64,000 nt of DNA from Alphaproteobacteria bacterium. Its GTDB lineage: Bacteria; Pseudomonadota; Alphaproteobacteria; Rickettsiales; SXRF01. Each line of letters starts with the position of its first letter. The first letter of the stretch is position 1. The DNA is taken from the NCBI GenBank assembly GCA_033763575.1, contig JANRKF010000010.1, positions 13,376-77,375 on the forward strand, read 5' to 3'. Below the pieces are notes generated by a model. It had not been told where the DNA came from and searched no databases. It saw only the letters and a list, made by a program, of their open reading frames with translations. The position numbers and the translations under genes are program-made. Below, piece by piece: positions 4,393 through 45,832 of the stretch.

Positions 4393-4407
4393 ATAATATT
4401 TTCTTAA
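4393..4407 (+). promoter_or_regulatory. CtrA-like box upstream of the pilin gene
   Basis: ATAA-tattttc-TTAA, 11 nt above -10-like TAGACT. Confidence 0.5.
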
Positions 4408-4455
4408 GGTTGATGCTGTAGACTTAGTGGGCAGAGTGTTAAACAGGGACTGAAT

Positions 4456-5274
4456 ATGCGGCGACAGGGGTTTACACTGATAGAACTAAGCATCGTCCTC
4501 GTAATTATAGGATTGCTGGTGGGTGGTGTGATGGTCGGTCAAAGCCTGATACGCGCCTCGGAAATGCGTTCCGTTATTACCGAAATCAACCAGTATAAAT
4601 CTGTGTTTTACGCCTTCAGGGATAAATTCAACGCACTGCCGGGCGACATGAGAAACGCAGAGAATTTTTGGGGCGAAATCGACCCCGACCCTGAAACATG
4701 CCGCACAACACTCGGCACCGGAACCCAAACCTGCAACGGGGATGGCAACGGCAAAATCACCGGCTACCCCGGCGGCGGCACCGAGGTATTCCGGGTGTGG
4801 CAACACATATCCAATGCGCAGCTCCTGCCTGTCATTTACACTGGCGTCACCGGCCCTGATAGTGCCCATTATGACGGCGAGCTTGGTAAGAATATTCCTG
4901 CATCACGCATTAGCGGCACCGGTTACAGCATCTATTATTGGGGCATTCAGGGCGTAGATTTCCCGAACGGACAAAGCTGGGCAGTGGTCTATCCCGGAGT
5001 GCAAGTTATTTTTCCTGGGATTGATTACGGCAACGCCATCATTTTTGGCCAATACGTTAATAATAGCTTTACCACAGGTGCCACGCTGACCCCGAATGAA
5101 GCGCATAGTATCGATATCAAATTTGATGACGGCTTTGCAGGCAAAGGGAAAGTGACTCCGTTCACTAATGATTTTCGCGATACGAACTGCACAACCACTT
5201 CCGACAATTCCGCAGAATATGATGGAAGTTATGACGCGATAGGATGTTCATTGCTGTTCATCACCGGGTTCTAG
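4456..5274 (+). CDS. type IV prepilin-like protein (N-terminal cleavage/methylation motif)
   Basis: RRQG/FTLIELSIVLVIIGLLVGG class III signal; ALPGDM; C-terminal Cys pair. Confidence 0.88.
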   Translation: MRRQGFTLIELSIVLVIIGLLVGGVMVGQSLIRASEMRSVITEINQYKSVFYAFRDKFNALPGDMRNAENFWGEIDPDPETCRTTLGTGTQTCNGDGNGKITGYPGGGTEVFRVWQHISNAQLLPVIYTGVTGPDSAHYDGELGKNIPASRISGTGYSIYYWGIQGVDFPNGQSWAVVYPGVQVIFPGIDYGNAIIFGQYVNNSFTTGATLTPNEAHSIDIKFDDGFAGKGKVTPFTNDFRDTNCTTTSDNSAEYDGSYDAIGCSLLFITGF

Positions 5275-5597
5275 CCAGTAATTTTTGTAAAGAAGCAGGT
5301 CTTTTCGCCGGTATGGCAGGCCGGGCCTTGCTGTTTGACCGCAAGCAGGAGCGTATCGGCGTCGCAATCCACATAAAATTCCACCAGTTCCTGGGTGTGG
5401 CCGCTGATCTCGCCCTTGCGCCACAAGGCCTTGCGGGAACGCGACCAATAGGTGACCTGCCGGGTTGCAAGCGTCTTTTCCACGGCCTCGCGGTTCATCC
5501 ATGCGAGCATCAGCACGGCGCCGCTGCTGCTATCCACCGCAATGGCCGGAATCAGGCCATCCTGGTTAAACGTGAGGGTAGACGGGTCAAATTTCAT
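5271..5597 (-). CDS. hisI: phosphoribosyl-AMP cyclohydrolase
   Basis: YWSRSR..LWRKGEISG, DCDADTLL, ACHTG..TCF. Confidence 0.95.
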   Translation of the reverse strand: MKFDPSTLTFNQDGLIPAIAVDSSSGAVLMLAWMNREAVEKTLATRQVTYWSRSRKALWRKGEISGHTQELVEFYVDCDADTLLLAVKQQGPACHTGEKTCFFTKITG

Positions 5598-5617
5598 AGG
5601 CTACATCTTTCGTTCGC

Positions 5618-6340
5618 ATGAAAGACAGTCTAATCAAAGCCACCTCGCTTAGCAAATCATTCCACGGCCAACGGGTGGTGGAGAGCGTGAGCCTGTCGCT
5701 TAAGCCCGGCGAGATTATGACGATCATCGGCCCGAACGGCAGCGGCAAAACGACACTCATCAAATTACTGCTGGGATTGGAAACACCGGATACCGGCAGC
5801 GTGACCCGCAAGGAAAAATTGCGCGTTGGCTATGTGCCGCAGAAACTACAGCTCTCGCGTGTGCTGCCGGTCACTGCGGAGTGGTTTTTGCGACTTAGTT
5901 GTCATCCCGGCGAAGGCCGGGATGACACGTTAAAAGAAATCACCTCCGAACTCGGCATCGATAACTGCCTGCATAAATCCGTGCATACGCTCTCCGGCGG
6001 TGAGATGCAGCGGTTGTTGCTGGCACGCGCACTGCTTGCACAGCCGGAACTGCTGGTGCTGGATGAACCGGCGCAGGGGGTAGACGTCACCGGGCAGGCC
6101 GAGCTGTATGCGCTCATCGCCCGCGTCAGCCGCCAGCGCGGTTCCGCCGTGCTGATGGTGTCGCATGATCTGCACCTGGTCATGTCCGCCACCGATCATG
6201 TCATCTGCCTGAACCACCATATCTGCTGCGAAGGGCACCCGCATTCGGTGCAGGACGACCCGGCATTCACTGAGCTTTTCGGCAAGCGCGTCGCCAATGA
6301 ACTGGCCGTCTACACCCACCACCACGATCACAACCATTAG
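5618..6340 (+). CDS. znuC: zinc ABC transporter ATP-binding protein
   Basis: GPNGSGKT, LSGGE, LDEP, SHDL..V, CLNHHICCEG, His-rich tail. Confidence 0.92.
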   Translation: MKDSLIKATSLSKSFHGQRVVESVSLSLKPGEIMTIIGPNGSGKTTLIKLLLGLETPDTGSVTRKEKLRVGYVPQKLQLSRVLPVTAEWFLRLSCHPGEGRDDTLKEITSELGIDNCLHKSVHTLSGGEMQRLLLARALLAQPELLVLDEPAQGVDVTGQAELYALIARVSRQRGSAVLMVSHDLHLVMSATDHVICLNHHICCEGHPHSVQDDPAFTELFGKRVANELAVYTHHHDHNH

Positions 6341-6437
6341 TGGTTTCTAGGTTGCTTAGTTGCTAGGTTGCTTGGTAAGAAAGACGAGTAACTCCAAAGC
6401 TGACCTAGAAACCTAGAAACCCAGAAACTCAGAGACC
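6341..6437. repeat. octamer-arm palindromic element (TAGGTTKC)n...(ACCTAGAA)n
   Basis: tggtttct aggttgct tagttgct aggttgct ... acctagaa acctagaa acccagaa actcagag fills the znuC-znuB spacer. Confidence 0.78.
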
Positions 6438-6442
6438 ATCTT

Positions 6443-7225
6443 ATGGACCCTTTCATCCTCCACGCCTGGCTCGCAGGGCTGGGCATTGCGCTGGCGAGCG
6501 CGCCGGTGGGCTGTTTTATCGCCTGGCAGCGGCTGGTTTATTTCGGCGATACGGTGGCGCACGCGGCGCTGCTCGGCGTCGTGTTGGGGCTGGTTTTTGG
6601 CGCTTCTCCTGCCATCGGCATCATTTTTATGGCCGTGATGATTGCGCTGCTGGTCGCTTCGCTTTCGGATGATTTCCTGCTGCCGTCCGACACGCTGCTG
6701 GGCATTCTTGCCCACGCGTCACTGGCGCTGGGCCTGGTGATTTTATCGCAATCGCCGTCGATCACGCTGGATGTGAACGGCCTGCTCTTCGGTGATATTC
6801 TTGCGGCAAACCAGCAGGATTTAAGGATGATTTTCGCGCTGGCGGCGAGCGTGACACTGCTTCTCGGAGCGTGCTGGAAGCCGCTGATGCGTTTCGTGCT
6901 GCATGCCGATATCGCGCAGGTGGAGGGTGTGAATACGCGCCGGATCCGCCTGATGCTGATGCTGCTCATCGCGCTGGTGGTCGCCGTATCGATCAAGCTG
7001 GTGGGCATTCTTCTCATCACCTCGCTGCTGATCTTACCGGCAGCGGCGGCGCGTTTGCTCGCCCGGTCGCCCGGACAGATGGCAATCATCGCCACCCTCC
7101 TCAGCATGGGGGCGGTGACGTTGGGGCTTGCCGCCTCGCTGCATTTCGATACGCCGACCGGGCCAAGCATCATCCTTTCGGCGCTCGCCATATTGATGAT
7201 GCTGGCATTGGTGAGACGGTCGTAA
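6443..7225 (+). CDS. znuB: zinc ABC transporter permease
   Basis: YFGDTVAHAALLG, LLFGDIL, IKLVGILLITSLLILPA. Confidence 0.92.
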   Translation: MDPFILHAWLAGLGIALASAPVGCFIAWQRLVYFGDTVAHAALLGVVLGLVFGASPAIGIIFMAVMIALLVASLSDDFLLPSDTLLGILAHASLALGLVILSQSPSITLDVNGLLFGDILAANQQDLRMIFALAASVTLLLGACWKPLMRFVLHADIAQVEGVNTRRIRLMLMLLIALVVAVSIKLVGILLITSLLILPAAAARLLARSPGQMAIIATLLSMGAVTLGLAASLHFDTPTGPSIILSALAILMMLALVRRS

Positions 7226-7267
7226 GTTATTATGATTTTATTTACCAAGCTGGTATAGTTAAGGCCT

Positions 7268-8602
7268 ATGACAAAAAAATTATTCGGAACCGATGGTATT
7301 CGTGGCCGCGCCGGGGAATTCCCGATGACGCCGGAAATGGCGCTCAAAGTGGGTATGGCGGCGGGCCTGCAATTCATGCGCGGGGCGCACCGCCACCGCG
7401 TGGTGATTGCCAAGGATACCCGCCTTTCCGGGTATATGATCGAAACGGCGATGACCAGCGGCTTTATCGCGGTGGGGATGGATGTGGTGCTGGTCGGGCC
7501 GATGCCGACGCCGGCGGTGGCCATGCTGGTGAAATCCCTGCGCGCCGATATGGGGGTGATGATTTCCGCCTCGCATAATCCTTACTACGATAACGGCATC
7601 AAACTCTTCGGGCCCGATGGCTATAAGCTTTCCGACAAAACCGAGGCCGCCATCGAAAAAGCGATTGAGCAGGACAGCCTCAAAACCGCCAGCGCCAAGA
7701 AACTTGGCCGCGCACGCAGGCTGGATGACGCGCAGGGCCGCTATATCGAATTCGCCAAGGCCACCTTCCCGAAAGAATTGACGCTGGATGGCCTGAAAAT
7801 CGTCGTCGATTGCGCCCACGGCGCGGCCTATCAGGTGGCACCGCTTATTTTCCGCGAGCTGGGGGCGGAAGTGATGCCCATCGGCGTGCAGCCGAACGGC
7901 ACGAATATCAATGAGGAATGCGGCTCCACCTCCACCGACATGATGTGCGAGATGGTGCGGCGCGCAGGGGCCGACATCGGCATCGCGCTGGATGGCGACG
8001 CCGACCGCGTCATCATTTGCGATGAAGACGGGCAGGTCCTCGACGGCGACCAGGTGATGGCGGTGATTGCCACGCTGTGCAAGAAAAACGGCACGCTGAA
8101 AGGCGCGGGCATTGTCGCCACCCAGATGTCGAATATGGCGCTGGAGCTTTATTTGCAGAAGATCGGGCTGACATTTGTGCGCACCAAAGTCGGCGACCGC
8201 TATGTGGTCGAGGGAATGCGCGAGGGCGGCTATAATATCGGCGGCGAGCAATCCGGCCACATCATCATGAGCGATTATACCACCACCGGCGATGGCATCA
8301 TCGCCGCGCTTCAAGTGCTCGCCTATATGCGTGCAAGCAAAAAACCTCTGAGCGTGTGCGGCAATCTATTCACCCCGATGCCGCAATTGCTGCGTAACGT
8401 ATCGTACAAAGGCAAATCGCCGCTTGATAAACCGGAGGTCAAAAAAGCCGTGGCCGCCGCCGAGAAAACGCTGGCGGGCAAGGGCCGCGTTTTCATCCGC
8501 GCATCGGGCACCGAGCCGCTTATCCGCGTGATGGCTGAGGGCGAAGATGCGGCGCTGGTGGGGGAGATGGTGGAAAAGATTTGTAAGGTGCTCCGTGCCT
8601 GA
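7268..8602 (+). CDS. glmM: phosphoglucosamine mutase
   Basis: [38 protein letters not shown]. Confidence 0.97.
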
Positions 8603-9419
8603 GACCATTGGCAGGGTGCTGATTATTGCCGGCTCTGATTCCGGCGGCGGCGCGGGCATACAGGGCGACATTAAAACCGTAACCTGCCTCGGCGGCTATG
8701 CAAGCACCGCGATCACAGCGCTCACCGCGCAAAACACAATGGGCGTCTTCGGTATTCACGAGGTGCCGGATGCGTTTATCGCACAGCAGATCGAGCTGGT
8801 GCTTTCCGATATCGGCGCCGACTGCATCAAGATCGGCATGCTGCACAAGACAAGTGTGATAGAGACGATTTATAATACGCTTTACCGAGTACCGAGTACC
8901 GAGTACCGAGTACCGTTAGTGCTGGATACGGTGATGTTTGCCAAGGGCGGAGCGCCGCTTCTGCAGCCGGATGCGGTGGATGCGCTAAAAAAATTACTCA
9001 TCCCGCGCGCGCTAGTTATCACGCCGAACATTCCGGAGGCGGAACATTTGACCGGCCTGAAAATCGCGACAGTGGATGACATGAAAAATGCCGCGCAGCA
9101 ATTACTGTCGCTTGGCGCGAACGCGGTGCTGCTCAAGGGCGGGCACGCGACAGGTGATGTCGTCACCGATATCCTGCTCTGCGATGGCGAGGCCGTTTTA
9201 CTCACTTCACCGCGCATCGATACGCCGCACACCCATGGCACCGGCTGCACCTACGCCTCGGCGATTGCCACCGGCATCGCGCAGGGATTGGCGCTCAAGG
9301 AAGCCGTTCTGCGGGCGCATGATTATGTCATGGAGGCGATAAGGAACGCCCCGGGCCTCGGCCATGGCCACGGTCCGCTGGGACACAACCACCTGTTATC
9401 TGTTAGGAGAGGCGAGTAG
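8595..9419 (+). CDS. thiD: hydroxymethylpyrimidine/phosphomethylpyrimidine kinase
   Basis: [40 protein letters not shown]; GTG start overlapping the glmM end. Confidence 0.95.
8883..8915 (+). repeat. perfect tandem heptamer (TACCGAG)x4 + TACCG inside thiD
   Basis: Read directly from the sequence; encodes [11 protein letters not shown]. Confidence 0.9.
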
Positions 9420-9485
9420 CGCCGAACCAGCCCTGAGCCAGCCTCATGGGACGCGCAGTAGCGCGTACCGGAGGCAACTATAAAA

Positions 9486-10667: not shown

Positions 10668-10714
10668 AGGCCCTTTCCTACTCTTTCATCATACCTGAAA
10701 ACAGGCCAAGAAAT

Positions 10715-10732: not shown

Positions 10733-10750
10733 CTTATGGGGCAGAAAATG

Positions 10751-10853: not shown

Positions 10854-10857
10854 TCGC

Positions 10858-23511: not shown

Positions 23512-23730
23512 CTATTTTTTCATTAAGCGCATGCCGAGATAGGTGCACGACCAGCAGGTGAGCACGAACACCACGAGCTGACCGATATTCTTGTCGGGGA
23601 TCACCATCGCGAAAATGAAACCGATGGAGGGAACGGCGAGCACCGCCACGACCAGGAACGTCCACCAATAGATAGCTGCCCATAACGACCCGGGGCGGTT
23701 GGACTCGTATTGCTTATCGTCTTCTACCAT
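23512..23730 (-). CDS. small two-helix membrane protein
   Basis: 72 aa from ATG at 23730; two hydrophobic segments. Confidence 0.7.
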   Translation of the reverse strand: MVEDDKQYESNRPGSLWAAIYWWTFLVVAVLAVPSIGFIFAMVIPDKNIGQLVVFVLTCWSCTYLGMRLMKK

Positions 23731-23782: not shown

Positions 23783-23797
23783 TTAATTTAGCCTTAA
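23783..23797. promoter_or_regulatory. perfect CtrA consensus box
   Basis: TTAA-tttagcc-TTAA. Confidence 0.6.
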
Positions 23798-23808: not shown

Positions 23809-25239
23809 TTATGCAGAAATTTCGGTTTCTTTCGGCGCGACATCCTCATAAAGCGGCAGGAAAATGCTGAAAATACTGCCTTCGCCGGGGGTGCTTTCGA
23901 TCTGCATGACCCCGTGGTGGCGGTTCAGCACATGCTTGACGATGGCAAGACCGAGGCCGGTGCCGCCGACCTTGCGGGTGCGGGCGGAATCGACGCGATA
24001 GAAGCGCTCGGTCAGGCGCGGTATATGCTCGGCGGGAATCCCCTCGCCCTGGTCCTGCACTGAAAACTGGATGGCGCGGGCGAGCGAACGGAACATCGGA
24101 TCTTCCGGCAATTGCTGCGTCACCTTGACCGAGATCAGCACATCCGTATCCGGCATGGTATATTTGATGGCATTGCCCAGCAGGTTGCGCACCACCTGCG
24201 CCAGCTCCTCATCCTCACCGCGCGCGGCCGGCAGAGTGTCGATGAGCTTCATGCGGATATTGACGTTCTTCTGTTTGCAGGCCCATTCGAAATGCTGTTT
24301 TTCGCTGCGGATAATACGCAGCAGATCGACCTTACCGACCGGCACGTTATGCGCGTTCATCTCGATTTTGGAGAGCGACAGCAAATCGTTCAGCAGCTTG
24401 CTCATGCGCTCGGCCTGCTCGGCGATCACTTTCAGGAATTCGTCGCGGGCGCGCTCATCGTCCTTGGCCGGGCCGCGCAGCGTTTCGACAAACCCGATGA
24501 TGGAGGCGAGCGGTGTGCGGATTTCATGGCTGGCATTGGCGACGAAATCGGCACGCATGCGCTGGATGCGTTTTTGCGCGGTGATGTCGGTCATGGTGAT
24601 GACGATGGAAATTCCCCCGGCAGAGGGAATCGGGAAGCGCTCGATGATCGCCTGGAAATCGCGTGGCTGGGGTTCCGGCAGGTGGAATTCGATTTCCTGC
24701 CCCTGGATATCCTCGACCACCGCTGTAATGGTGTTGATGAGCTTATCGTTGGGAATGATGTCGCGCAGATGCCGCCCCGACAAATTCTGGCCAAAAATAT
24801 TACGGGCGGCGCGGTTGGTACGCACGATGACCTTGTCGTCATTGGTCATGATGAGGATGTCGGGCAGCGTATCCACGAGGATTTCGCGCTCGGTAATCAC
24901 CGTTTCCATCTCCTGCCGTTTAGCTTCCCAGCTCGATTGCAGGCGGGCAAGGGCACCGGAAAGCTCACCGACATTGGAGAGGAAGGAAAGGCGCGGCGCT
25001 TGCACCCGTTTGTCCTGCGCCAGATCGTTCACGTAATGGGTGATGGCGGTGATGTTGGATAAAAACGGCATCACCACCAGCAGCGACAGCGCTAGCACCG
25101 TCACATAGCCATAAATAAAATGGTTGAAATCCAGCGAGCCGAAAATGGAAAGCAGCAGCAGCACCAGCAGCATCGGCAACGAAAAAACAATCATCGTGCT
25201 AAGCAGGGTGCGGAAGGGAATGGCGTGTTTGGACTGCAT
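23809..25239 (-). CDS. phoR: PhoR-like sensor histidine kinase
   Basis: TM-PAS-HisKA (DFVANASHEIRTPL)-HATPase (FYRVDSAR...GGTGLGLAIVKH). Confidence 0.85.
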   Translation of the reverse strand: MQSKHAIPFRTLLSTMIVFSLPMLLVLLLLSIFGSLDFNHFIYGYVTVLALSLLVVMPFLSNITAITHYVNDLAQDKRVQAPRLSFLSNVGELSGALARLQSSWEAKRQEMETVITEREILVDTLPDILIMTNDDKVIVRTNRAARNIFGQNLSGRHLRDIIPNDKLINTITAVVEDIQGQEIEFHLPEPQPRDFQAIIERFPIPSAGGISIVITMTDITAQKRIQRMRADFVANASHEIRTPLASIIGFVETLRGPAKDDERARDEFLKVIAEQAERMSKLLNDLLSLSKIEMNAHNVPVGKVDLLRIIRSEKQHFEWACKQKNVNIRMKLIDTLPAARGEDEELAQVVRNLLGNAIKYTMPDTDVLISVKVTQQLPEDPMFRSLARAIQFSVQDQGEGIPAEHIPRLTERFYRVDSARTRKVGGTGLGLAIVKHVLNRHHGVMQIESTPGEGSIFSIFLPLYEDVAPKETEISA

Positions 25240-25295
25240 GGAAGCGAGCCTACCACAACTATAACGATAATTCAATAAGTTATAGCCGGAAAAAC

Positions 25296-26419: not shown

Positions 26420-27392
26420 CCCTTTGACCCGGCTGCGCCGCCTGCGCCAGGCGCCATGGATCCGTGAGCTTGCCGCCGAAACGCGCCTGCACCCGTCGGA
26501 TCTCATTTTGCCCATTTTTGTGACCGAGGGTGAGAATCGCACCGACCCGGTGGCGAGCATGCCCGGCGTGGCGCGCCTGTCGCTCGATTTACTGGCGGCG
26601 CGGGCGAAGGAAGCGCAGTCACTCGGCATCCCGGCCATCGCGCTGTTCCCCCATGTCGAGGCGGGCAAGAAAACCCCGCTGGGCGAGGAGGCGCTGAACC
26701 CCGATAATCTCGTCTGCCGCGCCATCAAGACCCTGAAAAACGCCGTGCCGGAAATCGGCGTGATTGCCGATGTCGCGCTCGACCCCTACACCTCCCACGG
26801 CCATGACGGCATCATCGAAAATGGTGATGTGGCGAACGACGCCACCGCCGAAATCCTCTGCCAGCAAGCCTTGCTCCACGCCGAAGCCGGGTGCGACATC
26901 ATCGCCCCCAGCGATATGATGGACGGGCGCATCGGCGCCATCCGCACGGCGCTTGAGGTGAGCGGCTATACCGGCACCATGATCCTCTCCTACGCCGCGA
27001 AATATGCCTCGGCGATGTACGGCCCGTTCCGCGACGGGGTGGGCAGCAGCAGCGCGCTCGGCAAGGCCGATAAACGCACCTACCAAATGAACCCGGCAAA
27101 TGCGGATGAGGCGATGCGCGAGATCGCCATGGATATTGCCGAGGGCGCCGACATGGTGATGGTGAAGCCCGGCCTGCCCTATCTGGATGTGATCCGGCGG
27201 GCGGCGGGCGCGTTCGATGTGCCGGTGCTGGCCTATCAGGTGAGCGGGGAATATGCGATGATACAGGCCGCAGCAGCAAATGGCTGGGTCGATGGCCCGG
27301 CGGTCATGCACGAGCAGCTCCTTGCCCTCAAACGCGCCGGCGCCCGCGCCATCCTCACCTACGCCGCGGTGGAGGTGGCGAAAACAATCTGA
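26385..27392 (+). CDS. hemB: porphobilinogen synthase
   Basis: RLRRLR, ALDPYTSHGHDG, APSDMMDGR, SY.AKYAS..YGPFR, MVKP, YQVSGEY. Confidence 0.97.
   Translation: MSVTCHLPPAPFPLTRLRRLRQAPWIRELAAETRLHPSDLILPIFVTEGENRTDPVASMPGVARLSLDLLAARAKEAQSLGIPAIALFPHVEAGKKTPLGEEALNPDNLVCRAIKTLKNAVPEIGVIADVALDPYTSHGHDGIIENGDVANDATAEILCQQALLHAEAGCDIIAPSDMMDGRIGAIRTALEVSGYTGTMILSYAAKYASAMYGPFRDGVGSSSALGKADKRTYQMNPANADEAMREIAMDIAEGADMVMVKPGLPYLDVIRRAAGAFDVPVLAYQVSGEYAMIQAAAANGWVDGPAVMHEQLLALKRAGARAILTYAAVEVAKTI
27334..27383 (+). repeat. 50-bp direct repeat, left copy (hemB 3' end)
   Basis: 48/50 identical to 28011-28060. Confidence 0.92.
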
Positions 27393-27423: not shown

Positions 27424-27702
27424 ATGGACATAGAAATTATTTTTGACCCCAATAAAGATCGCCGCAATATCGATAAGCACGGCATCAGCCTGTCCAGTAT
27501 CGTTGATATTGATTGGCCGCTTGCGGTAACGCGGGAAGATGACAGAGTGGATTATGGTGAACACCGCTACCGTATATTTGCACCGCTGGATGGAATTTTG
27601 CATACGGCTGTCGTCGTATGGAGGAAAGGGACGATGCGAGGCATAAGTTTGCGGCAAGCGAATAAAAAAGAAAGAAAATGGTATGAAGAAGAAATCGGCT
27701 AA
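27424..27702 (+). CDS. BrnT-family toxin
   Basis: FDPNKDRRNIDKHGISL, DDRVDYGEHR, R.ISLRQANKKERKWY. Confidence 0.9.
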   Translation: MDIEIIFDPNKDRRNIDKHGISLSSIVDIDWPLAVTREDDRVDYGEHRYRIFAPLDGILHTAVVVWRKGTMRGISLRQANKKERKWYEEEIG

Positions 27703-27985
27703 AAAACGTATTGCGCCCACCCGGCCAGACAAGGAAAATCCTGAATGGACACGCGAGGATTTTCGCCGCGCCCGCCCGGCGGTCGAGGTGTTCACCGAGC
27801 TGATGGGACGCGAGGCGGCAGAAGCCTTCGTCTATAAAAAACGTGGACGCCCACCGAAGCCGCAAACCAAAAAACTGGTCTCCATGCGGCTTGACAGCGA
27901 AGTGATCGACGCCTTCCGTGCGCGTGGTGCTGGCTGGCAGACGCAGATCAATGACGTGCTGCGCGAATGGGTCGAGACACATTGA
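27683..27985 (+). CDS. BrnA-family antitoxin
   Basis: ENPEWT, RGRPP...K..VSMRLDSEVIDAFRA.G.GWQTQINDVLR. Confidence 0.92.
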   Translation: MKKKSAKKRIAPTRPDKENPEWTREDFRRARPAVEVFTELMGREAAEAFVYKKRGRPPKPQTKKLVSMRLDSEVIDAFRARGAGWQTQINDVLREWVETH

Positions 27986-28010: not shown

Positions 28011-28072
28011 GCGCCGGCGCCCTCGCCATCCTCACCTACGCGGCGGTGGAGGTGGCGAAATCACTAACTTGA
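28011..28072 (+). pseudogene. orphan duplicate of the hemB C-terminus (right copy of the direct repeat)
   Basis: Reads AGALAILTYAAVEVAKSLT* versus hemB AGARAILTYAAVEVAKTI*. Confidence 0.85.
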
Positions 28073-28079
28073 CAAAATA

Positions 28080-28094
28080 TTAAACATTTTTTAA
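28080..28094 (+). promoter_or_regulatory. perfect CtrA consensus box
   Basis: TTAA-acatttt-TTAA, 10 nt above TATAGT. Confidence 0.62.
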
Positions 28095-28126
28095 TATTTT
28101 GACCTATAGTGAAAGGAGTGGGCACA

Positions 28127-29200
28127 ATGACTCTTAGGGATAAGCCGCTAAACCGCAGGGAAGCACTACGGCTTGCAGTATTTGGCGCCAACACGCTCAA
28201 TACGGCAGCCAATGCGTTGAACGCACCCGGCGCACCGCCAGCTGCGGTTATTCCTCCTGAAATACTTGAGAACGCAAGAATTGGCCTGCTGCACCGGCTC
28301 GGCGCGGCGTTCCTGCCGTTTAGCAAAGCTGCTTCCTGGTATCAACTCAACACTGTTGAGCCGATAACGACCTTTACCCGTCTCCTCAGTTATTCATTTC
28401 ACTTCGATAATACACAAACCCCTACCTATGTTCAAAGACCGTATAGAGACAGTCTCGAAGCCTCATATCAAACGGTTGGGGGGAAAGGTGCGGCGGTAGA
28501 AGAGCTGCTGGCGGAATATCACCGCTTGTTCCACGAATACCCCACGTGGGGTGAGCTGGTCGAATATATACCGAAGGGTGATGGTGTATCGCGCATCGGG
28601 AGCCATGTAGACCGCAAAAGCCGAATGCAGCCGGGTGAGCTGGTGCAAGCGGTTATCGATGAAAACCTGCCCCCGGATAAATTCAACGACAGGTATCTTA
28701 CACCCTCCAGGCACGCGGAGAATTTACTTTATGCAGAATCACTCGATAATATTATTGAGAAATTAACCGCGATCATCTCGAACAAAAACCTCGCGCTTAC
28801 GACCAGCGAGCGCCTCGCCATACTGAAAGCAGAGATGCTGCATCTTATTAAAGAATGTGCAAATGAGTTGGGGCTTGTCGGCCATGAGGATCATCCCCGC
28901 GTAGCCGAACGGGTGAACGAAAGGCTGCTGCCCCATCTGCACGCAACCCATCCGGAAATCCTGCCCGCCACTTTATCTCCCATTACGCTCGCCGCCGCGG
29001 GGACAGCCGCTATCGTCGCAGCCGCCGGGGTGGAAACAACGCCCGCAGACGCCGCACCAAGCGATACCCCTGCCGCCCTCCCCGCAGCACCCAAAGCGAT
29101 CGAACACACCCCCACAGAAACGGTCGCGAATGTATTAGGCACAGCACCGGCAGTAGAACCAGTGCCCGTGGTGATTGCCAAACAACAAAATAGGCGATAA
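28127..29200 (+). CDS. orphan hypothetical protein, possible twin-arginine leader, Ala/Pro-rich tail
   Basis: RBS aaggag 8 nt before ATG 28127; LNRREALRLAVFG. Confidence 0.75.
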   Translation: MTLRDKPLNRREALRLAVFGANTLNTAANALNAPGAPPAAVIPPEILENARIGLLHRLGAAFLPFSKAASWYQLNTVEPITTFTRLLSYSFHFDNTQTPTYVQRPYRDSLEASYQTVGGKGAAVEELLAEYHRLFHEYPTWGELVEYIPKGDGVSRIGSHVDRKSRMQPGELVQAVIDENLPPDKFNDRYLTPSRHAENLLYAESLDNIIEKLTAIISNKNLALTTSERLAILKAEMLHLIKECANELGLVGHEDHPRVAERVNERLLPHLHATHPEILPATLSPITLAAAGTAAIVAAAGVETTPADAAPSDTPAALPAAPKAIEHTPTETVANVLGTAPAVEPVPVVIAKQQNRR

Positions 29201-29220: not shown

Positions 29221-29340
29221 AAACTCGCTCTGTTGAGATTAAGAGCGAAGTTTTTGAGAACCGTAGCGCAGCGTACATTAGGGTACGTGAGCAACGGAAG
29301 CGCAAAAAACAAAGCGGCTTAATCCAACAGAGTAGAGTTT
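29221..29340. repeat. RPE-like palindromic element, copy 4
   Basis: Arms aaactcgctctgttgagattaag / cttaatccaacagagtagagttt; core nearly identical to copy 3; abuts the ubiX ATG. Confidence 0.85.
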
Positions 29341-30247: not shown

Positions 30248-32824
30248 CTACTTGCGGCGGCCTGCGCCCTGAGGCGCACTCGGCGTCGGCGGCGGTGTTT
30301 CGGGCTGCTGGTCGGTATTTTCGGAAGGGAGTGGTGTTTTCATGCTCGCCGTATTTAAAATATTGGCCAATTTGGCGGCGTCTAGTTTTCCTTCAAGCCC
30401 GGCGAGCTTTGCCGCGTTATTTAATTCTTCGGCGGACACTTTCCCGTCGCGCACTCCGTCCATATTGCCGTCCAGCGCGCCTATCATTCTCTCTCTACGC
30501 GCCGTGCGCTGATCTCGCAATGCCTCGATGACCTGCCCATTTTCATCAACGTCAGCGATCGCATATTTGATTCCGCCAAACATCGAAAGCTGGTTAAGCT
30601 CCTTAGCAATTTCTGCCGCTGCATCCAGCTTTGCCTTATCAGGCGTAATTGCTGCCGAAGCCGCCACTTCCGATTTAGCCTCAACCGGCGCGGCGTCTGC
30701 GGGTCTCATTTCGACTGTTATTGGCTTGGGTTCAGGTTTCGGGCGTGGCGCACTGGCTGCCGCTTCGGGGGCGGGCATTTCCACAGGCGTTACTGCCGGT
30801 TTAGGTGCTAGCCCCAAAAGCGTGCCCACATCTTTTTTACGAGATGTGATGCCCTCACCAGGCTTCAATTTATTCAATTCATCACCCACCTCTGCTATGA
30901 ATTTCTTACCCTCATCGGTTTTAAGAAACTTGGCGCCATCCCCGGCGGAAAAATAAGTCACGGTGGCTTGATAATCCTCTTCCTTGCCAAACCACTGCCC
31001 TTTCATGCCATCAACCAGCACCTTTTTCTGTTTTCTGAGAATTTCATCTGCCGCTGCGGCGGGTTTTTCGACGGCGGGCGCTTGCTGTGGCTTGGCTGTA
31101 GAGGTTGTTTGGCTCTGCTGCATAGTCGCGGCAGGGGCGGCTTGCGCAGGTATCAGCGTATAATACGATTCGGGATCTTTCTTGATAAAATGTTCATATT
31201 CCCATTTCGCATGAGCCGAGACAAGCGGCCCGTTGCCATAGGAAAATTTCTTGGCCTCTTCGCTATGATGACTCCTAAAAGAGTCGCGAATATTAGCTTC
31301 CAGAGTGGCACGGTCTTTATCACTTAATTGAATGCCTTTTGTATCTTGCAGGAATTGGGCGCCGAGCGCCGCATAAGCATTAACCGCTGCATTCATGGCG
31401 CCAACCGGATCTGCACCTTGATATGTGCGCCTCATATGCTCTGTTTCCGCTCTTTTTAACAACACTTCCGCCGCAGCTTCCTGTCGCGCAAATTGCTCTT
31501 TGGGCGTGGGCGGCGCGGCTGGTTCCTGCTTCGGCGCGGCTGTGGCCTTCGGAGCTTGTTTATTACGGAAATCCAGCGCGCTGACCGGAGGCACAGGCGG
31601 CTCTGGCAATTTTTCCGGAGCCACTGCGGACTCTATATGCTGGGGATTACGGATACCATCGCGACTGATAATCTCATCCACCGCGTCATTGACCAGTTGC
31701 TCCTCAGTCCGCAGGACTTGCGGGTGGCGTAAGATTCGATTATGGTTTTGTTCCCCCCTGCCATATTCCAAACTCATTTGCTCATACGCTGGAATCAGAT
31801 CTGAAATCTGCCCGCTGGCCGCACTCTCATGAAAATCGCCATAGGCTTTGCGGAGATTGGCAGCTTTTTCCTCATCACCGGCTTTCAGCGCATCATTAAG
31901 ACGGGTTATCATCTCGTCCTTGATGAGACGGTTGAAATCCCTCTCAGATTGACTAAGCCTATTCATCCGAAGGGCGGCAGGCAGGGAAAGGCCACCAGCT
32001 CCATCAGGCTGCTTGCCATTGTTGTCATATTCGTAAAATTTCGATGCCAAATTTTCCGGAGTGGCAAGCGCTGTCGCTTCCTGCACCCCAATCGCCGCCA
32101 CCGAGTCCCGAATCGCTTTAGAACCGCTCTGTTGCGCCCCAAGAAGCGCTTTCAAGGAAGCGTCATAAGCTTCTTTTTGCGCGGCTTCCTGTTCCAGTGC
32201 TTTGGGAAGCGCGACCGATGCCTCTTCGGCTGCGGTTCTTACAGCCTTCCATCTATCAGCTTCTCTACCAGCGGTGATGTATTGCAGCATAATGTCGCGC
32301 TCGGCGATTTGGTGCCGGTCCAATTGCGCGTCCCATGAACCAGGTGTTGCTTTCGCCGCTCTTTGAAGTCGCCAATCGTATATTCCCGACGTGGTTTCAA
32401 TATTGGCCAAGCCAGGATCCCCTAGCTTTTTCTTCAGCGGTGCATATTTAGGATCCATCATAATTTGCCGTCCGATCTCAGTCTGTCTGGCAACGGCGTC
32501 ATAATACAGTTTGCTTGCTTCTTCGGCGCTTGTGGAAGTCTTGTTTTCCACTTTTAGGCGCTGCTCTGTGGCGGTCGTTAAGGCCTCGCCTGCTTGCTTG
32601 AAAGCAGCACTCGGCCCGGCAACCGATTCCGCATAGGATTTTAAAGCAGCACGCACATCACCCAGTCGTTCGAGTTGATCCGAACTCTCAGCATTGGTGG
32701 CGACAGCATTTTCCAATTCATCAAAAAAATTACTGCCAAGACGAGACAATCGCGCTTGCTCAAAAGCCTCTATTTCAGCTTGCTCGTGTTTGGGATTCGT
32801 TAATTCGGCCATCTCATCCTCCAA
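30248..32824 (-). CDS. large orphan coiled-coil, Ala/Pro-rich protein with EF-hand-like motif
   Basis: 858-aa ORF, RBS ggagg; DGNMDGVRDGKVSAEEL; basic tail GAGRRK. Confidence 0.82.
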   Translation of the reverse strand: MEDEMAELTNPKHEQAEIEAFEQARLSRLGSNFFDELENAVATNAESSDQLERLGDVRAALKSYAESVAGPSAAFKQAGEALTTATEQRLKVENKTSTSAEEASKLYYDAVARQTEIGRQIMMDPKYAPLKKKLGDPGLANIETTSGIYDWRLQRAAKATPGSWDAQLDRHQIAERDIMLQYITAGREADRWKAVRTAAEEASVALPKALEQEAAQKEAYDASLKALLGAQQSGSKAIRDSVAAIGVQEATALATPENLASKFYEYDNNGKQPDGAGGLSLPAALRMNRLSQSERDFNRLIKDEMITRLNDALKAGDEEKAANLRKAYGDFHESAASGQISDLIPAYEQMSLEYGRGEQNHNRILRHPQVLRTEEQLVNDAVDEIISRDGIRNPQHIESAVAPEKLPEPPVPPVSALDFRNKQAPKATAAPKQEPAAPPTPKEQFARQEAAAEVLLKRAETEHMRRTYQGADPVGAMNAAVNAYAALGAQFLQDTKGIQLSDKDRATLEANIRDSFRSHHSEEAKKFSYGNGPLVSAHAKWEYEHFIKKDPESYYTLIPAQAAPAATMQQSQTTSTAKPQQAPAVEKPAAAADEILRKQKKVLVDGMKGQWFGKEEDYQATVTYFSAGDGAKFLKTDEGKKFIAEVGDELNKLKPGEGITSRKKDVGTLLGLAPKPAVTPVEMPAPEAAASAPRPKPEPKPITVEMRPADAAPVEAKSEVAASAAITPDKAKLDAAAEIAKELNQLSMFGGIKYAIADVDENGQVIEALRDQRTARRERMIGALDGNMDGVRDGKVSAEELNNAAKLAGLEGKLDAAKLANILNTASMKTPLPSENTDQQPETPPPTPSAPQGAGRRK

Positions 32825-32860
32825 CTGATATTTCTTGTCATCGATACTACCACCAACTTA

Positions 32861-32886
32861 TTAACAACGATCTTACGAATCATTAA
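32861..32886 (-). promoter_or_regulatory. triple CtrA-like half-site array
   Basis: Minus strand TTAA-N7-TAAG-N7-TTAA, 11 nt above TAGTAT. Confidence 0.55.
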
Positions 32887-39506: not shown

Positions 39507-39542
39507 TATTAAGTATAGTATCAATCAAGGGAGAGGCAACAC

Positions 39543-39959: not shown

Positions 39960-39975
39960 CAACAGGGAGGATATT

Positions 39976-40128: not shown

Positions 40129-40231
40129 ACCTGTGTTTTTTACTTCATCGGGTCACTCTTTTATGATAGCATCCACGCAAGATGCGTATGCCAGACCTGT
40201 CCACGGGATGGCCGCGAACAGCGGTGTATTT

Positions 40232-40846: not shown

Positions 40847-40869
40847 CATTCAACCTTAAAGGAGTCCCC

Positions 40870-42216
40870 ATGAAAAAATCCCTATTAGCTCCGTCTGTGC
40901 TTGTCACAAGCTTGTTAATATCTCCGTTGTCGGCTCTGGCTGACGATCCTAATGTCAATGCCCGTATACAAAAACTGGAGCAGGAGCTGGCTTTGCTCAA
41001 GCGGCAGGTTGAAGTAAAAGATGAAAAAGATCAGGCGGCGGCAGAAAAAATTGCGGGCGTTGAATTGGGCAGGAAGGGGCTTAAAATTACCTCGCCGGAT
41101 AAAAACTATGAGCTTTCCCTGCGCGGCAATTTCCAGATTGATAATCGCCAGTTTCTGAAGGACAAAAACAGCACGGGTAAAAATGAATTTTTAGCCCGCA
41201 GATTGCGTCCGGTTCTCGAAGCCAGGGCGGGGGATGCGTCTTTCCGCCTGATGCCGGATTTTGCGGGTTCCAGCACCCGCGTGTTTGATGCCCATGCGGA
41301 TTATAAACTTTATGACGAGCTGCAATTCCGCATCGGTAAATTCAAAACGCCGGTGAGCCTGGAGCGGTTGCAATCTCCCGTGGATATGTTGTTCATTGAG
41401 CGTGGTCATCCGAGCAACTTGGCTCCCAGCCGTGATTTTGGGGTTATGGCCTATGGCAACCTGATTCCCGATCAACTTGAATATCAAATAGGCGTATTCA
41501 ACGGCAACCAAGATTTGGGCAATACCGATAGCGATGATGACGACAAAAAAGATTATGTGGCGCGTATTTTTGCGCATCCTTTCCGCAATGCGGATACCGT
41601 GGCGCTGCAAGGTCTTGGCGTTGGCGTGGCGGGCAGTGTGGGCGAGCGTGAGGGCGGCAACGGGAAATCCATCCTCGGCACTTACAAAACACCCGGCCAG
41701 CAGGATTTTTTCCGCTATCGCTCTGATACCTATGCCGATGGCACGCACTGGCGGCTTTATCCGCAGGCATATTGGTATTATGGCAATCTTGGGGTCCTTG
41801 CTGAGTATGCGATTTCCAACCAGAGCGTCACTCGCGGATCCAATCATGGTGAATTACAACACACCGCATGGCAGGTGGAAGGCTCCTATGCGCCCACGGG
41901 GGAGGATATCAACTTCAAGGGCGGCATTAAACCCGCGCAGGATTTTAACCTCAGCAAAGGCGGCATTGGCGCGTGGGAACTGGTGGCGCGGGCGGGCGGT
42001 ACGGATGTGGATAATGGCGCATTCACAAGCTTTGCCGACCGTGCCATTGCTGCAAGCAGCGCGCAAAGCTATGGCGGTGGCATAAACTGGTATTTGAATG
42101 AAAATTTCAAACTGGCTCTTAATTACGAATTCACGACGTTCACAGGCGGCAATGTGGCCGGAACGGATCGTGCGGATGAGCATTTTCTCGTCACCCGTTC
42201 ACAATTTAGATTTTAA
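40870..42216 (+). CDS. OprO/OprP-family anion-selective porin
   Basis: Signal peptide, coiled N-terminus, F..RR.RP, GKFK.PVSLERLQ, WELVAR, GINWYLN, terminal F. Confidence 0.87.
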   Translation: MKKSLLAPSVLVTSLLISPLSALADDPNVNARIQKLEQELALLKRQVEVKDEKDQAAAEKIAGVELGRKGLKITSPDKNYELSLRGNFQIDNRQFLKDKNSTGKNEFLARRLRPVLEARAGDASFRLMPDFAGSSTRVFDAHADYKLYDELQFRIGKFKTPVSLERLQSPVDMLFIERGHPSNLAPSRDFGVMAYGNLIPDQLEYQIGVFNGNQDLGNTDSDDDDKKDYVARIFAHPFRNADTVALQGLGVGVAGSVGEREGGNGKSILGTYKTPGQQDFFRYRSDTYADGTHWRLYPQAYWYYGNLGVLAEYAISNQSVTRGSNHGELQHTAWQVEGSYAPTGEDINFKGGIKPAQDFNLSKGGIGAWELVARAGGTDVDNGAFTSFADRAIAASSAQSYGGGINWYLNENFKLALNYEFTTFTGGNVAGTDRADEHFLVTRSQFRF

Positions 42217-42246
42217 TGCTATAACGATTACCCCAAAGGAGATTTT

Positions 42247-43317
42247 ATGAAATTATTTGATACCGTCATTGCGAGTGTAAGCGAAGCAATCCATCTAACT
42301 ACACCATCCAAAGCCGGATTGCCGCGGAGGCTTTGCCTCCTCGCAATGACAGGATTTTCTTTATTCGCCTTCTCTGCACAAGCGGAGCCACTCGAATTGC
42401 TCAACGTGTCCTATGACCCGACGCGGGAATTCTATCAGGAATATAACACGATGTTCGCCAAACACTGGAAAGAAAAATCCGGGCAAGATATTGTCGTGAA
42501 GCAATCGCATGGCGGCTCCGGCAAGCAGGCGCGTGGCGTGATCGACGGGCTGCAGGCAGATGTAGTCACCCTTGCTCTGGCCTACGACATCGACGCCATT
42601 GCGGAAAGGGCGAAGCTGCTGACGACGGATTGGCAAAGCAAATACCCGAACAACAGCGCGCCCTACACCTCCACCATTGTGTTCCTGGTGAAAAAGGGAA
42701 ATCCGAAGCAGATCAAGGATTGGGATGATTTAGTAAAACCCGGTGTGCAGGTGATTACCCCGAACCCGAAAACCTCCGGCGGCGCACGCTGGAACTACCT
42801 AGCAGCCTATGGCTATGCGCTGAAGAAAAACGGCAATGATGCGGCGAAGGCAGAGGAATTTGTGAAGGAGCTATTTGCCAACGTGCCGGTGCTCGATACC
42901 GGCGCGCGGGGTGCTACCACCACCTTCGTCCAGCGCGGCATCGGCGATGTGCTGCTCGCGTGGGAGAACGAGGCTTTCCTTGCCAAGCAGGAGCTGGGCA
43001 AGGATAAAATCGAGATTGTAGTTCCGTCGCTTTCTATTCTGGCCGAACCGCCAGTCGCCGTGGTGGACAAGGTGGCCGAGAAAAAAGGCACGCTCGCGGC
43101 CGCCCGCGAATATCTGCATTATCTCTACGGCAAAGAGGCGCAGGCATTGGCGGCGAAGCATTATTACCGCCCGTACGATACGGAAGTAGCAACAAAATAT
43201 GCGTCAAAATTCCCGAAGCTGGAACTGCTCACCATCAACGATTTCGGCGGCTGGAAAGAGGCACAGAAAAAACATTTCGACGATGGCGGCATCTTCGACA
43301 AGATCATGCGGAGGTAG
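42247..43317 (+). CDS. sbp: sulfate ABC transporter substrate-binding protein
   Basis: [43 protein letters not shown]. Confidence 0.95.
42265..42350. repeat. 86-bp REP/RPE-like element inside the sbp signal-peptide coding region
   Basis: Perfect 11-bp termini gtcattgcgag / ctcgcaatgac; inner gcaatcc / ggattgc; hairpin ggaggctttgcctcc. Confidence 0.88.
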
Positions 43318-43319
43318 GT

Positions 43320-44870
43320 TGGTGGAGGCTAACGGACAAACTTCGAACTATTTAGACCGATTTCGGGAGTCGTTTGACGAGCTGGAACGCTGGTGGAACC
43401 AGACTTACAGCGATAGTGTGATGTTCGGAAGGAGGAGTTCTAGCAAGTCCAGTAGGGTTGCGGCCTAAGTGTATTGAAGCTGTAGTCGATTCTGCTAATG
43501 TTTCACTCTTATTGGAGATGGTCATGGCATTCGATGGATTAGATATATCTGAAATCACTGAGGCTCACATTACGGCGTTAATTGGAACGCTAGAGAGCCG
43601 TGACCTAGATTTTAAACAGCAAGAATATGGTCGTGCTGACCAAGATAAAAAAGAGTTTGCGGCAGATGTGTCTGCCTTTGCTAATACCATTGGCGGCCAT
43701 TTGCTGATTGGCGTGGCGGAGGAGAATGGCGCTGCTTCAACTACTCCGGGCATCACTGGTGATATAGATACTGAAATTCAGCGGCTAGAAAGCATTGCAC
43801 TTACGGGTATCCAGCCCAGAATTATAGGTTTGCAAATGCGTGCCGTACCAATGGCGGCTGGCAATTCAGTATTGGTAATTCGTATTCCGAAAAGTTGGAA
43901 TTCTCCACACCGAGTAACCCTACAAGGGGTGAATCGTTTTTATTTACGTGCAGGTTCAAGAAGATATGAGCCTGACGTGGATGAGTTGCGCCAATTATTT
44001 GAAGGCGGGAGGACACTATCGCAGCGAATTAGAGATTTTCACAATGAAAGAATTGCGAAGATTGTTGGACACGATACGCCTGTGCCTACCGACAATTCCT
44101 CTGCGCTTGTAATGCATGTCATTCCCTACGCTGCCTTTCTTGGAGGCACTATGCTTGACACGCCAACCTTATCAGGCGCGGCAAACCGCTTTTATCCAAT
44201 GGCTGCAACTGGAATGAACCGACGTGTCAATCTAGAAGGAATAGTTACTTATACTGGAACAGCCGCTCCCCATCCTGCTTACACTCAGGTCTGGAGAAAT
44301 GGGTGTATAGAAGCTGTGCGCGGCTTACTGGTGGTCGAAGGTAGAACTAACGGTGTTAAGGCTGTAGTTCTCAATGAGCTAACGAGAAAATTACTCGGCG
44401 GCATTGACCAATACCTTAAAGGCTTGGCTCATTTAGGCTTTCAGCCGCCTTTTGCAGTACTTGTTACACTTATTGGAGCAAAAGGAGCTATTCTTCACGT
44501 GGGCAATACTTACTTCGATGAACAAGAGCAGTTTGATCGGGATATACTAACACCCAGCGAAATTATTATAGACAAAATTCCTACCACCGATGCTGAAATG
44601 CAGGACATACTAGATCCTATACTGCACCAAATTGCTAATGCAGCAGGGTATGACGCAGCACCTGGAATTTAATACCCAACCGGACTTCTTAGAACTTTTG
44701 TTCGAACTGCCAAAAAGCACCAGCAGCTCTAACGTTGCGCGATTTTAGTGTTGTTACACTCTTCACGCTGACGGAATAATTTAGAACTATCGGAATGTGG
44801 CGCTGAGGCGCAGATTTTCTGGAGTTTTTTGGGGTCTAAAAGAAGTGGTGGAGCATAACGGAGTCGAACC
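43320..44870. mobile_element. integrase-less mini-island at the tRNA-Ala 3' end
   Basis: tggtggag..taacgga....tcgaac at 43320-43348 is a degenerate copy of the tRNA 3' end at 44846-44870; interior is visibly AT-richer. Confidence 0.65.
43524..44672 (+). CDS. Schlafen/AlbA_2-domain protein
   Basis: ESRDLDFK, DVSAFANTIGGHLLIGV, IPKS...PH, FYLRAGS; unrecognised C-terminal domain. Confidence 0.85.
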   Translation: MAFDGLDISEITEAHITALIGTLESRDLDFKQQEYGRADQDKKEFAADVSAFANTIGGHLLIGVAEENGAASTTPGITGDIDTEIQRLESIALTGIQPRIIGLQMRAVPMAAGNSVLVIRIPKSWNSPHRVTLQGVNRFYLRAGSRRYEPDVDELRQLFEGGRTLSQRIRDFHNERIAKIVGHDTPVPTDNSSALVMHVIPYAAFLGGTMLDTPTLSGAANRFYPMAATGMNRRVNLEGIVTYTGTAAPHPAYTQVWRNGCIEAVRGLLVVEGRTNGVKAVVLNELTRKLLGGIDQYLKGLAHLGFQPPFAVLVTLIGAKGAILHVGNTYFDEQEQFDRDILTPSEIIIDKIPTTDAEMQDILDPILHQIANAAGYDAAPGI

Positions 44871-44921
44871 GTTGACCTCTTCCATGCCATGGAAGCGCTC
44901 TACCAGCTGAGCTAATGCCCC
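44846..44921 (-). tRNA. tRNA-Ala(GGC)
   Basis: 76-nt cloverleaf, anticodon stem cttcc/ggaag with loop atGGCat, encoded CCA. Confidence 0.97.
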
Positions 44922-44949
44922 GAAATATCGGCGATCTTTTCTTCCGCGA

Positions 44950-45026
44950 TGGCGCACCCGGAGCGATTCGAACGCCCGGCCTTCTGATTCGTAGTCAGAT
45001 GCTCTATCCAGCTGAGCTACGGGTGC
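44950..45026 (-). tRNA. tRNA-Arg(ACG)
   Basis: 77-nt cloverleaf, acceptor GCACCCG/CGGGTGC, loop ctACGaa, encoded CCA. Confidence 0.97.
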
Positions 45027-45166
45027 ACAGAACGCGAAAGGAAGGGGAACCTAGCAAATTTTTTTGATAAAACAAGGATAAAATAGTCCGGATTCTGTTA
45101 TAGGCCATTGACGATTCATTTACGATGTCCTAGGGTCGCTGCCATTCATTTACCGGAGGAACTTTC

Positions 45167-45796
45167 ATGATCCACACTCGTTTTTCGCGTATTCTCAGCA
45201 CCACCGCATTTCTGGCTGCGCTCGTCACACTCTCGGCCTGCAGCACCATGGAAAGCGCTTATAACGACACGTACGACAATGTCAGCAGCGTCTTCGATGG
45301 CGATGGCGACGATCTGGACGCCGCCCCCAAAGTGAGCGTGAAATCGCCTGCGGCAGCGCCTGTGCAGGATGTGAACGCCAACGAGATCAACAATGACGGC
45401 GAACAGCCCGTTGAGCTCGGCTCGATGAGCGACAAGGCGGTGCCGACGGCGGCGATTGCCCCTGCGCCCGCCCCCGCTCCTGCGGCCAGCGATTCGGTCG
45501 CCCTGCTCACCCTTCGCTTCAACCAGCCGCACGTTCATTATGAGGATGCGCTGTCCCAGGCGGTGAATGCGGCGGAGCAAGTAAAACAGGGTGTGCAATA
45601 TGAGGTGCTCTCCACGGTGCCGGACCTTTCCTCGCTGCCGCCGGAGCAGCAGGAGAAGCTCGCCGCCCGCGCCAAGGACAATCTCCGCAATGTGGTGATG
45701 AAAATGCAGCAGCAAGGCGTGGCGCCGGACCGCATCCGCATCGCCGAGCAGACGCTGCGCATCCGCAGCCAGGAAATCCGAGTGTTTGTTCGCTAA
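45167..45796 (+). CDS. putative lipoprotein
   Basis: Lipobox LSAC; Ala/Pro linker; C-terminal alpha/beta domain (IRFNQ...YE). Confidence 0.8.
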   Translation: MIHTRFSRILSTTAFLAALVTLSACSTMESAYNDTYDNVSSVFDGDGDDLDAAPKVSVKSPAAAPVQDVNANEINNDGEQPVELGSMSDKAVPTAAIAPAPAPAPAASDSVALLTLRFNQPHVHYEDALSQAVNAAEQVKQGVQYEVLSTVPDLSSLPPEQQEKLAARAKDNLRNVVMKMQQQGVAPDRIRIAEQTLRIRSQEIRVFVR

Positions 45797-45817
45797 GAGC
45801 CTCTTCCCGCGCTCATT

Positions 45818-45832
45818 TTAGCTTATTTTTAA
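45818..45832 (+). promoter_or_regulatory. CtrA-like box
   Basis: TTAG-cttattt-TTAA, 11 nt above TAGGCT. Confidence 0.45.

Follow-up and report, generated by a model that had tools for sequence, protein, structure and literature searches.

The 64-kb stretch of DNA analysed here, which we call the window, is contig C10:13376-77375 of an uncultured alphaproteobacterium (assembly of 1.94 Mb, 55% guanine plus cytosine (GC), 92% complete). Its LepA and CtrA proteins assign it to uncultured Alphaproteobacteria, with metagenome-assembled genomes labelled 'Rickettsiales bacterium' or 'Alphaproteobacteria bacterium' as the closest named records. Several of its genes are preceded by a sequence of the form TTAA-N7-TTAA, the published consensus of the response regulator CtrA (PMC6180460, PMC2877005). 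We refer to this sequence as the CtrA box, and to a box followed by 11 nucleotides (nt) and a TAnnnT hexamer as the composite promoter. An earlier note on the window had proposed that a pilin gene, a small membrane-protein gene and three genes without recognisable relatives (orphans) share promoters of this kind, and it had placed the boxes of the pilin gene and the orphans 10-11 nt above a -10 element. The boxes at 4393 and 45818, with one mismatch each, and those at 28080 and 23783, both perfect, have the sequences that it described. The three sites that belong to the class with the best support, and the genes behind them, lie as follows (window positions; aa, amino acids).

4393..4407, plus strand: CtrA-type box ATAAtattttcTTAA with one mismatch, in the promoter-distal half
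4419..4424, plus strand: -10 hexamer TAGACT, 11 nt after the box; predicted start site near 4431
4456..5274, plus strand: type-IV-pilin-like gene, 272 aa, product starting MRRQ-G/FTLIELS; PF07963, TIGR02532
28069..28094, plus strand: three half-sites TTGA, TTAA and TTAA in 11-nt phase
28069..28097, plus strand: sigma-70-like TTGACA-N17-TAATAT, 10 of 12 positions matching; its spacer and -10 overlap the CtrA box
28080..28094, plus strand: perfect box TTAAacattttTTAA
28105..28110, plus strand: -10 hexamer TATAGT at an offset of 10 nt from the perfect box; next come an AAAGGAG ribosome-binding site and the ATG at 28127
28127..29200, plus strand: orphan gene, 357 aa
45818..45832, plus strand: CtrA-type box TTAGcttatttTTAA with one mismatch
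45844..45849, plus strand: -10 hexamer TAGGCT, 11 nt after the box
45856..46392, plus strand: orphan gene, 178 aa, codon score at the 1st percentile

The composite promoter is strongly over-represented both in the window and in the genome. With at most one mismatch it occurs four times in the window against 0.31 expected, and none of the 100 shuffles from which window chance levels were taken reached four. Genome-wide, TTAA-Nk-TTAA is found 37 times at k = 7 and between 2 and 19 times at the other values of k from 0 to 20. Perfect boxes in intergenic sequence number 33-35 at N7 against 2-9 at other spacings, an enrichment of about 5-fold that is confined to N7; set against the roughly 6.6 expected by chance, the count of 33 implies that about 80% of them are in excess. 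Boxes with one mismatch are followed by TAnnnT 30 times at an offset of 11 nt and 22 times at 12 nt, over a background of about 9.5 that holds at the remaining offsets and after boxes of other spacings. A perfect proximal half-site combined with a one-mismatch distal half gives 20 sites against a background of about 5.5, a two-mismatch distal half gives 20 against about 11.5, and three or four distal mismatches give no excess.

A 32-column matrix trained without the window sites was then used to score the genome, and its blocks were slid by 1-4 nt to produce 62 decoy geometries. The true geometry yields 27 matches of at least 19.5 bits where decoys yield about 0.9, and 73 matches of at least 14 bits (35 of them training sites) where decoys yield about 13. 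Such a genome-wide scan with spacing statistics had been named in the earlier note as one way to check its proposal, and both the N7 spacing and the 11-nt offset come out of it strongly enriched over internal controls. The class has further base preferences: the distal TTAA tends to be followed by C or T, and the proximal TTAA to be preceded by a T-rich stretch. The sites at 4393 and 45818 both obey them. The 37 perfect sites have no common flanks and are therefore not copies of one repeat. Accordingly, a repeated element as the source of the enrichment was considered and rejected, the promoter regions being unrepeated except for a 50-nt duplication beside 28069. Two other ideas were discarded as well. 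A further class with a spacing longer by one helical turn is not apparent, as TAnnnT at offsets 21-24 shows no excess genome-wide; and CtrA promoters do not favour atypical or accessory genes, as the codon scores of 44 targets do not depart from the genome median (Mann-Whitney p = 0.73). In a comparison set of 40 relatives, the composite is at least 1.5-fold more frequent than a reversed-pattern control, itself imperfect, in many moderate-GC genomes; some relatives show no increase, several of these having very high counts.

The genome encodes a CtrA orthologue (G000:C6:83101-83820), which is one among its eight OmpR-type regulators. The protein matches NF045991 over residues 1-224 with 412.5 bits (cut-off 350), and its receiver domain aligns with Brucella CtrA 4qpj (E = 1.5e-46). 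Residues D51, T168 and T170 are present, and the two threonines, located in the DNA-binding domain, match those of Caulobacter CtrA. A perfect box lies 60 nt upstream of ctrA in this genome. The gene is likewise preceded by a perfect box in 22 of 29 relatives, mostly within the conserved block TTGTGGTTAACTAAAAATTAAAT.GTTAATG. In many relatives another box, with one mismatch (ATAAAGATTGTTTAA), lies 30 nt upstream of this main box, and a further TTAA often follows the main box directly; these extra boxes recall the two-promoter layout of Caulobacter ctrA.

The genes downstream of the composite, most of which were identified by Pfam, form a coherent set. They comprise three flagellins (one with 1667 aa), fliF, motB and one chemoreceptor, the pilus and secretion genes cpaB, tadE, virB2 and virB8, and genes for a DUF2497 protein and an SLT lytic transglycosylase; clpX is also among them, identified by eye only. 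Flagellar, chemotaxis and pilA genes are known to be under CtrA control (PMC2877005, PMC6847485). In mapped CtrA-activated promoters the box ends 23-24 nt before the start site and an A at -11 is invariant; activator sites lie near -35, and repressor sites overlap the -10 element (PMC6180460). The orthologue, the N7 enrichment, the fixed -10 offset and the coherence of the targets together bear out the proposal that this genome has a CtrA-type promoter class. Outside the window, two giant flagellin-like genes, both with Flagellin_N at the N-terminus of the product, lie downstream of composite CtrA promoters (G000:C8:18595-23598, 1667 aa; G000:C10:86618-88936, 772 aa).

On these grounds we consider it very probable that the promoters depend on CtrA. 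In the mechanism that we propose, a dimer of phosphorylated CtrA would bind the two TTAA half-sites, one helical turn apart. The box would replace the -35 element, its last base lying about 24 nt before the transcription start, and the housekeeping sigma factor would read the TAnnnT hexamer located 11 nt past it. Promoters of this type would also drive ctrA and the genes for flagella, chemotaxis, the Tad pilus and type IV secretion; their members in the window would be the pilin-like gene at 4456, the leaderless orphan at 45856 and probably the orphan at 28127. We infer CtrA binding, activation rather than repression, and a timing at the dispersal or pre-divisional stage. Going by other CtrA systems, the orphans may be life-stage-specific, as the earlier note had suggested.

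At 14 of 76 class sites, the -10 hexamer is followed after 5-8 nt by the start of an open reading frame (ORF) of 60 codons or more, compared to 0-1 in control geometries, and about a fifth of the class promoters thus appear to give leaderless mRNAs. This pattern fits the 45856 orphan, a PlsC-like gene described below and many pilin genes of relatives, in which 38-39 nt separate the start of the box from the ATG.

The site at 4393 is highly likely to be a CtrA site. Its composite scores 19.5 bits and ranks 27th among the intergenic matches of the genome, at a score that decoys reach about 0.9 times per genome. The gene behind it encodes a protein with a G/F-x-x-x-E cleavage and methylation motif that matches PF07963 with 28.9 bits and TIGR02532 with 29 bits. 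Its AlphaFold model (predicted local distance difference test score 90.7) combines a 51-residue N-terminal helix (residues 8-58) with a beta-sheet head. Among 81 homologues, C245 and C264 are invariant, which suggests a C-terminal disulfide; C93 is also invariant and C82 nearly so. No sequence match was found in the PDB, and the best Foldseek match of the head among PDB structures, C. difficile PilA1, is not significant (E = 0.18, probability 0.54). Assignment to the Flp/Tad pilins (Caulobacter PilA type, about 60 aa) was rejected, given the length of 272 aa, the N_methyl motif and the lack of any Flp family match. The genome encodes five T2SSE-family ATPases. Judged by length, they would be PilB (593 aa), CpaF, VirB11 and two PilT-like proteins (370 and 398 aa).

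This pilin family is large and variable. It has 11 paralogues in this genome, and 38 of the 41 related genomes contain 3-34 copies each. More than 5000 homologues exist in public data; their identity to the window copy does not exceed 47%, and a search for close relatives of that copy in named genomes found none. The composite is found at four of about eight independent pilin promoters of this genome, one of them divergent from fliF. In relatives, 13 of 43 pilin promoters have it, where twenty decoy geometries give 0-3, which points to conservation at the level of the pilin family. In the same-genus genomes examined, the slot of the window pilin gene, flanked by the secD-side genes and hisI, lacks this gene.

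The site at 45818 scores 23.7 bits with the matrix (rank 6 genome-wide), and we would be surprised if it were not a CtrA site. Its -10 hexamer lies only 6 nt before the ATG at 45856, which implies a leaderless mRNA. The encoded orphan has no homologue in the 40 relatives or among 5.8 billion proteins, and the whole 600-nt unit of promoter and ORF (45797-46397) is absent between the lipoprotein-like gene and glmS in both same-genus genomes. The unit fills the gap of two convergent genes, with the ORF ending 5 nt before the glmS stop; the corresponding gap measures 12 nt in one same-genus genome and about 55 nt in the other.

CtrA likely binds the perfect box at 28080, and the 28127 orphan probably belongs to the CtrA promoter class. 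The 10-nt offset of its hexamer falls in the range seen for perfect boxes, and the shifted register at 28069 scores 18.6 bits with the matrix. This orphan, too, lacks any homologue in the 40 relatives or among 5.8 billion proteins, and the same-genus genome G002 does not have it: there, ubiX comes 143 nt after hemB.

Two further sites from the earlier note, and one that it did not list, are less regular.

23783..23797, minus strand: perfect box TTAAtttagccTTAA, reading TTAAggctaaaTTAA on the minus strand
23512..23730, minus strand: small gene, 72 aa, two predicted membrane helices, ATG after GGAGG
32861..32875, minus strand: weak candidate TAAGatcgttgTTAA, two mismatches, perfect proximal half-site
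32844..32849, minus strand: -10 hexamer TAGTAT, 11 nt after the proximal half-site, then GGAGGA and ATG 32812
30248..32812, minus strand: orphan gene, 854 aa (the 858-aa orphan of the earlier note), rich in Ala, Glu, Lys and Pro
53877..53909, minus strand: additional site ATAAcaactccTTAA, with a one-mismatch box at 53895, 12 nt and TATAAT

The box at 23783 lies 12 nt beyond the stop codon of the gene for a PhoR-like kinase and ahead of the gene for the 72-aa membrane protein, which matches no Pfam family. TTAATT stands at +11, and the nearest TAnnnT, TAGGCT (23759-23754), at +23. We lean towards counting this site as bound by CtrA, probably in a geometry other than that of the class. The histidine kinase gene upstream of the box (23809-25275, minus strand) encodes a PhoR/PnpS-like protein that scores 300-310 bits, under both curated cut-offs.

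The site at 32861 had been read as a box with at most one mismatch and three half-sites. On the minus strand it has two mismatches, and its three half-sites, the third being a TTAA at 32883, are spaced 12 and 10 nt rather than 11. It scores 14.5 bits (rank 70), and we regard it as a somewhat doubtful CtrA site. The 854-aa orphan behind it has only faint partial matches among the 40 relatives. The position of the -10 element claimed for four sites therefore stands for 4393 and 45818 (11 nt) and 28080 (10 nt), and for 32861 (11 nt) only behind a box with two mismatches. As to membership of the class, three of the five sites (4393, 28080 and 45818) are retained, 23783 is left open and 32861 is weak.

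At 53895, TATAAT is separated by 6 nt from the ATG of a PlsC-like acyltransferase gene (53244-53870; NCBIfam), whose mRNA would be leaderless. Sites of this type (one mismatch, offset 12) number 22 against a background of about 9.5, and for this one the chances of being a CtrA site seem to us evenly balanced.

Several observations weigh against assigning these boxes to CtrA. Taken alone, the box with at most one mismatch is at background level in the window: there are 20 where 13.65 ± 3.64 are expected, and 5 of the 100 shuffles reach 20. The two perfect boxes compare with 0.48 expected, and 10 of the 100 shuffles reach two. The earlier note had named a background frequency in AT-rich spacers as one finding that would undo its proposal; this is what the bare box shows in the window, while the composite in the window and the perfect boxes genome-wide stand above background. 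One-mismatch intergenic boxes are only about 25% more frequent than at other spacings (190 against about 152), so that only about 20% of them are beyond chance, and the intergenic mask came from a rough home-made gene caller, on which neither the k-spacing count nor the window shuffles depend. The sites at 4393, 28080 and 45818 cannot be followed into the same-genus genomes, since these lack the genes in question. In G002, the slot of the 854-aa orphan holds a different ORF of 1028 aa with no composite site on its strand. At 23783 the spacing of the class is lacking, as no TAnnnT occurs at 10-12 nt on the strand of the gene. Finally, the box at 28080 lies inside a good sigma-70-like promoter, so that CtrA could repress there.

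This last point leads to the alternative that survives best. The segment 28069-28110 may work through the sigma-70-like TTGACA-N17-TAATAT, with the overlapping CtrA box serving as a repressor site or not being used at all. Ten of 12 positions match, the spacer has 17 nt, and the box covers the spacer and the -10 element, as CtrA repressor sites do (PMC6180460); moreover, base 5 of the box is an A, an uncommon choice within the class (3 of 38). Other features of the same segment speak for the CtrA arrangement, namely the three half-sites in 11-nt phase with TATAGT 10 nt after the perfect box, and a closely similar downstream segment (TTGACCTAATGT) at another perfect-box member, C13:65700. Since the large majority of perfect intergenic boxes are also non-random, we consider the sigma-70-like promoter to be a serious but rather unlikely explanation, and retain the 28127 orphan as a probable member of the CtrA class.

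A second alternative is that the composite is read by a factor other than CtrA, either another OmpR-family regulator, of which the genome offers several in its set of eight OmpR-type proteins, or an alternative sigma factor with a TTAA-like upstream element. The match of the motif to the published CtrA consensus (PMC6180460, PMC2877005), the box kept before ctrA in most relatives, the fit of the flagellar, chemotaxis and pilus targets to known CtrA regulons and the presence of T168 and T170 as in Caulobacter CtrA (residues discussed in PMC6847485) make this very unlikely. Slightly less credible still is the view that the boxes match by chance, as AT-rich spacers would allow, and that ordinary promoters serve the genes: the non-significant count of bare boxes in the window, the modest genome-wide excess of one-mismatch boxes and the two mismatches needed at 32861 (in a class with 20 sites against about 11.5) speak for it, but it does not account for an enrichment restricted to N7, a -10 peak at exactly 11-12 nt, the scarcity of decoy matches, the composite count in the window or an arrangement shared by functionally coherent targets, and it is realistic only for 32861 and, in part, for 23783 and 53895. 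CtrA thus remains the preferred reader of these promoters. The regulon that emerges is real but of an ordinary CtrA kind, with new members specific to the lineage, and it leaves knowledge of CtrA itself unchanged.

The promoters resemble the full-motif promoters of Caulobacter crescentus (fliQ, fliL, ctrA P2, pilA) and Rhodobacter sphaeroides (fla2), in which the box occupies the -35 position and ends 23-24 nt from the start, with an A at -11 (PMC6180460), the start sites here being predicted. The targets are alike as well, with ctrA among them next to genes for flagella, chemotaxis and pili (PMC2877005). Unlike those model systems, the present one belongs to an uncultured lineage with a 1.9-Mb genome and is predicted from sequence; in addition, its targets include a large type-IV-pilin-like family, virB2, virB8 and species-specific orphans, and about a fifth of its promoters apparently give leaderless mRNAs.

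Caulobacter PilA is a short pilin of the Flp/Tad type. The window gene encodes instead a 272-aa prepilin with a G/FTLIE N-methylation motif in a genome that encodes PilB- and PilT-like ATPases, and the Tad genes of this genome (cpaB, tadE) have boxes of their own. The likeness to the Caulobacter promoter PpilA, which is CtrA-dependent and active in G1 phase, lies in a pilin gene placed behind a CtrA box, implying stage-specific piliation (PMC6847485, PMC2877005). In Ehrlichia chaffeensis, CtrA has been proposed to switch on dispersal-stage genes in the dense-cored stage (as summarised in PMC6847485). The bacterium studied here is likewise an alphaproteobacterium of host-associated type with CtrA. 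It differs from Ehrlichia chaffeensis in retaining flagella, chemotaxis and pili, and from the rickettsial lineage in that its CtrA keeps T168, as in free-living species, rather than valine.

These comparisons permit a bolder idea, which we put forward as a speculation with the odds against it: CtrA might control a fast-turnover, stage-specific surface and interaction repertoire in these uncultured alphaproteobacteria. This repertoire would consist of the hypervariable type-IV-pilin-like family together with compact units of a CtrA promoter and an often leaderless ORF. Such compact units appear as species-specific insertions between housekeeping genes. If the idea were true, new genes would be expressed at the dispersal stage once they had gained a 32-nt promoter. 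More generally, the composite of TTAA-N7-TTAA, 11 nt and TAnnnT is a sharper search pattern than the bare box. The analysis also yields a regulon map, open to testing, of a lineage not yet grown in culture. This map shows which genes are likely to be turned on along with the flagellum and pili, including orphans that nothing else annotates.

Repeats lie on either side of the 28127 orphan. The 3' end of hemB is present as a 50-nt direct repeat (96% identical) at 27334-27383 and 28011-28060, which flanks a brnT/brnA toxin-antitoxin pair (27424-27985; PF04365, PF14384), and the arrangement resembles an insertion accompanied by a long duplication of its target. The second hemB copy keeps a relic frame ending in AKSLT and a stop codon, and this TGA stop sits in the TTGACA at 28069. 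On the other side of the orphan, a segment of about 65 nt before ubiX (29244-29309), probably belonging to a miniature repeat family, recurs in at least six other genomic places (C10, C11, C26, C27, C35) with 86-92% identity.

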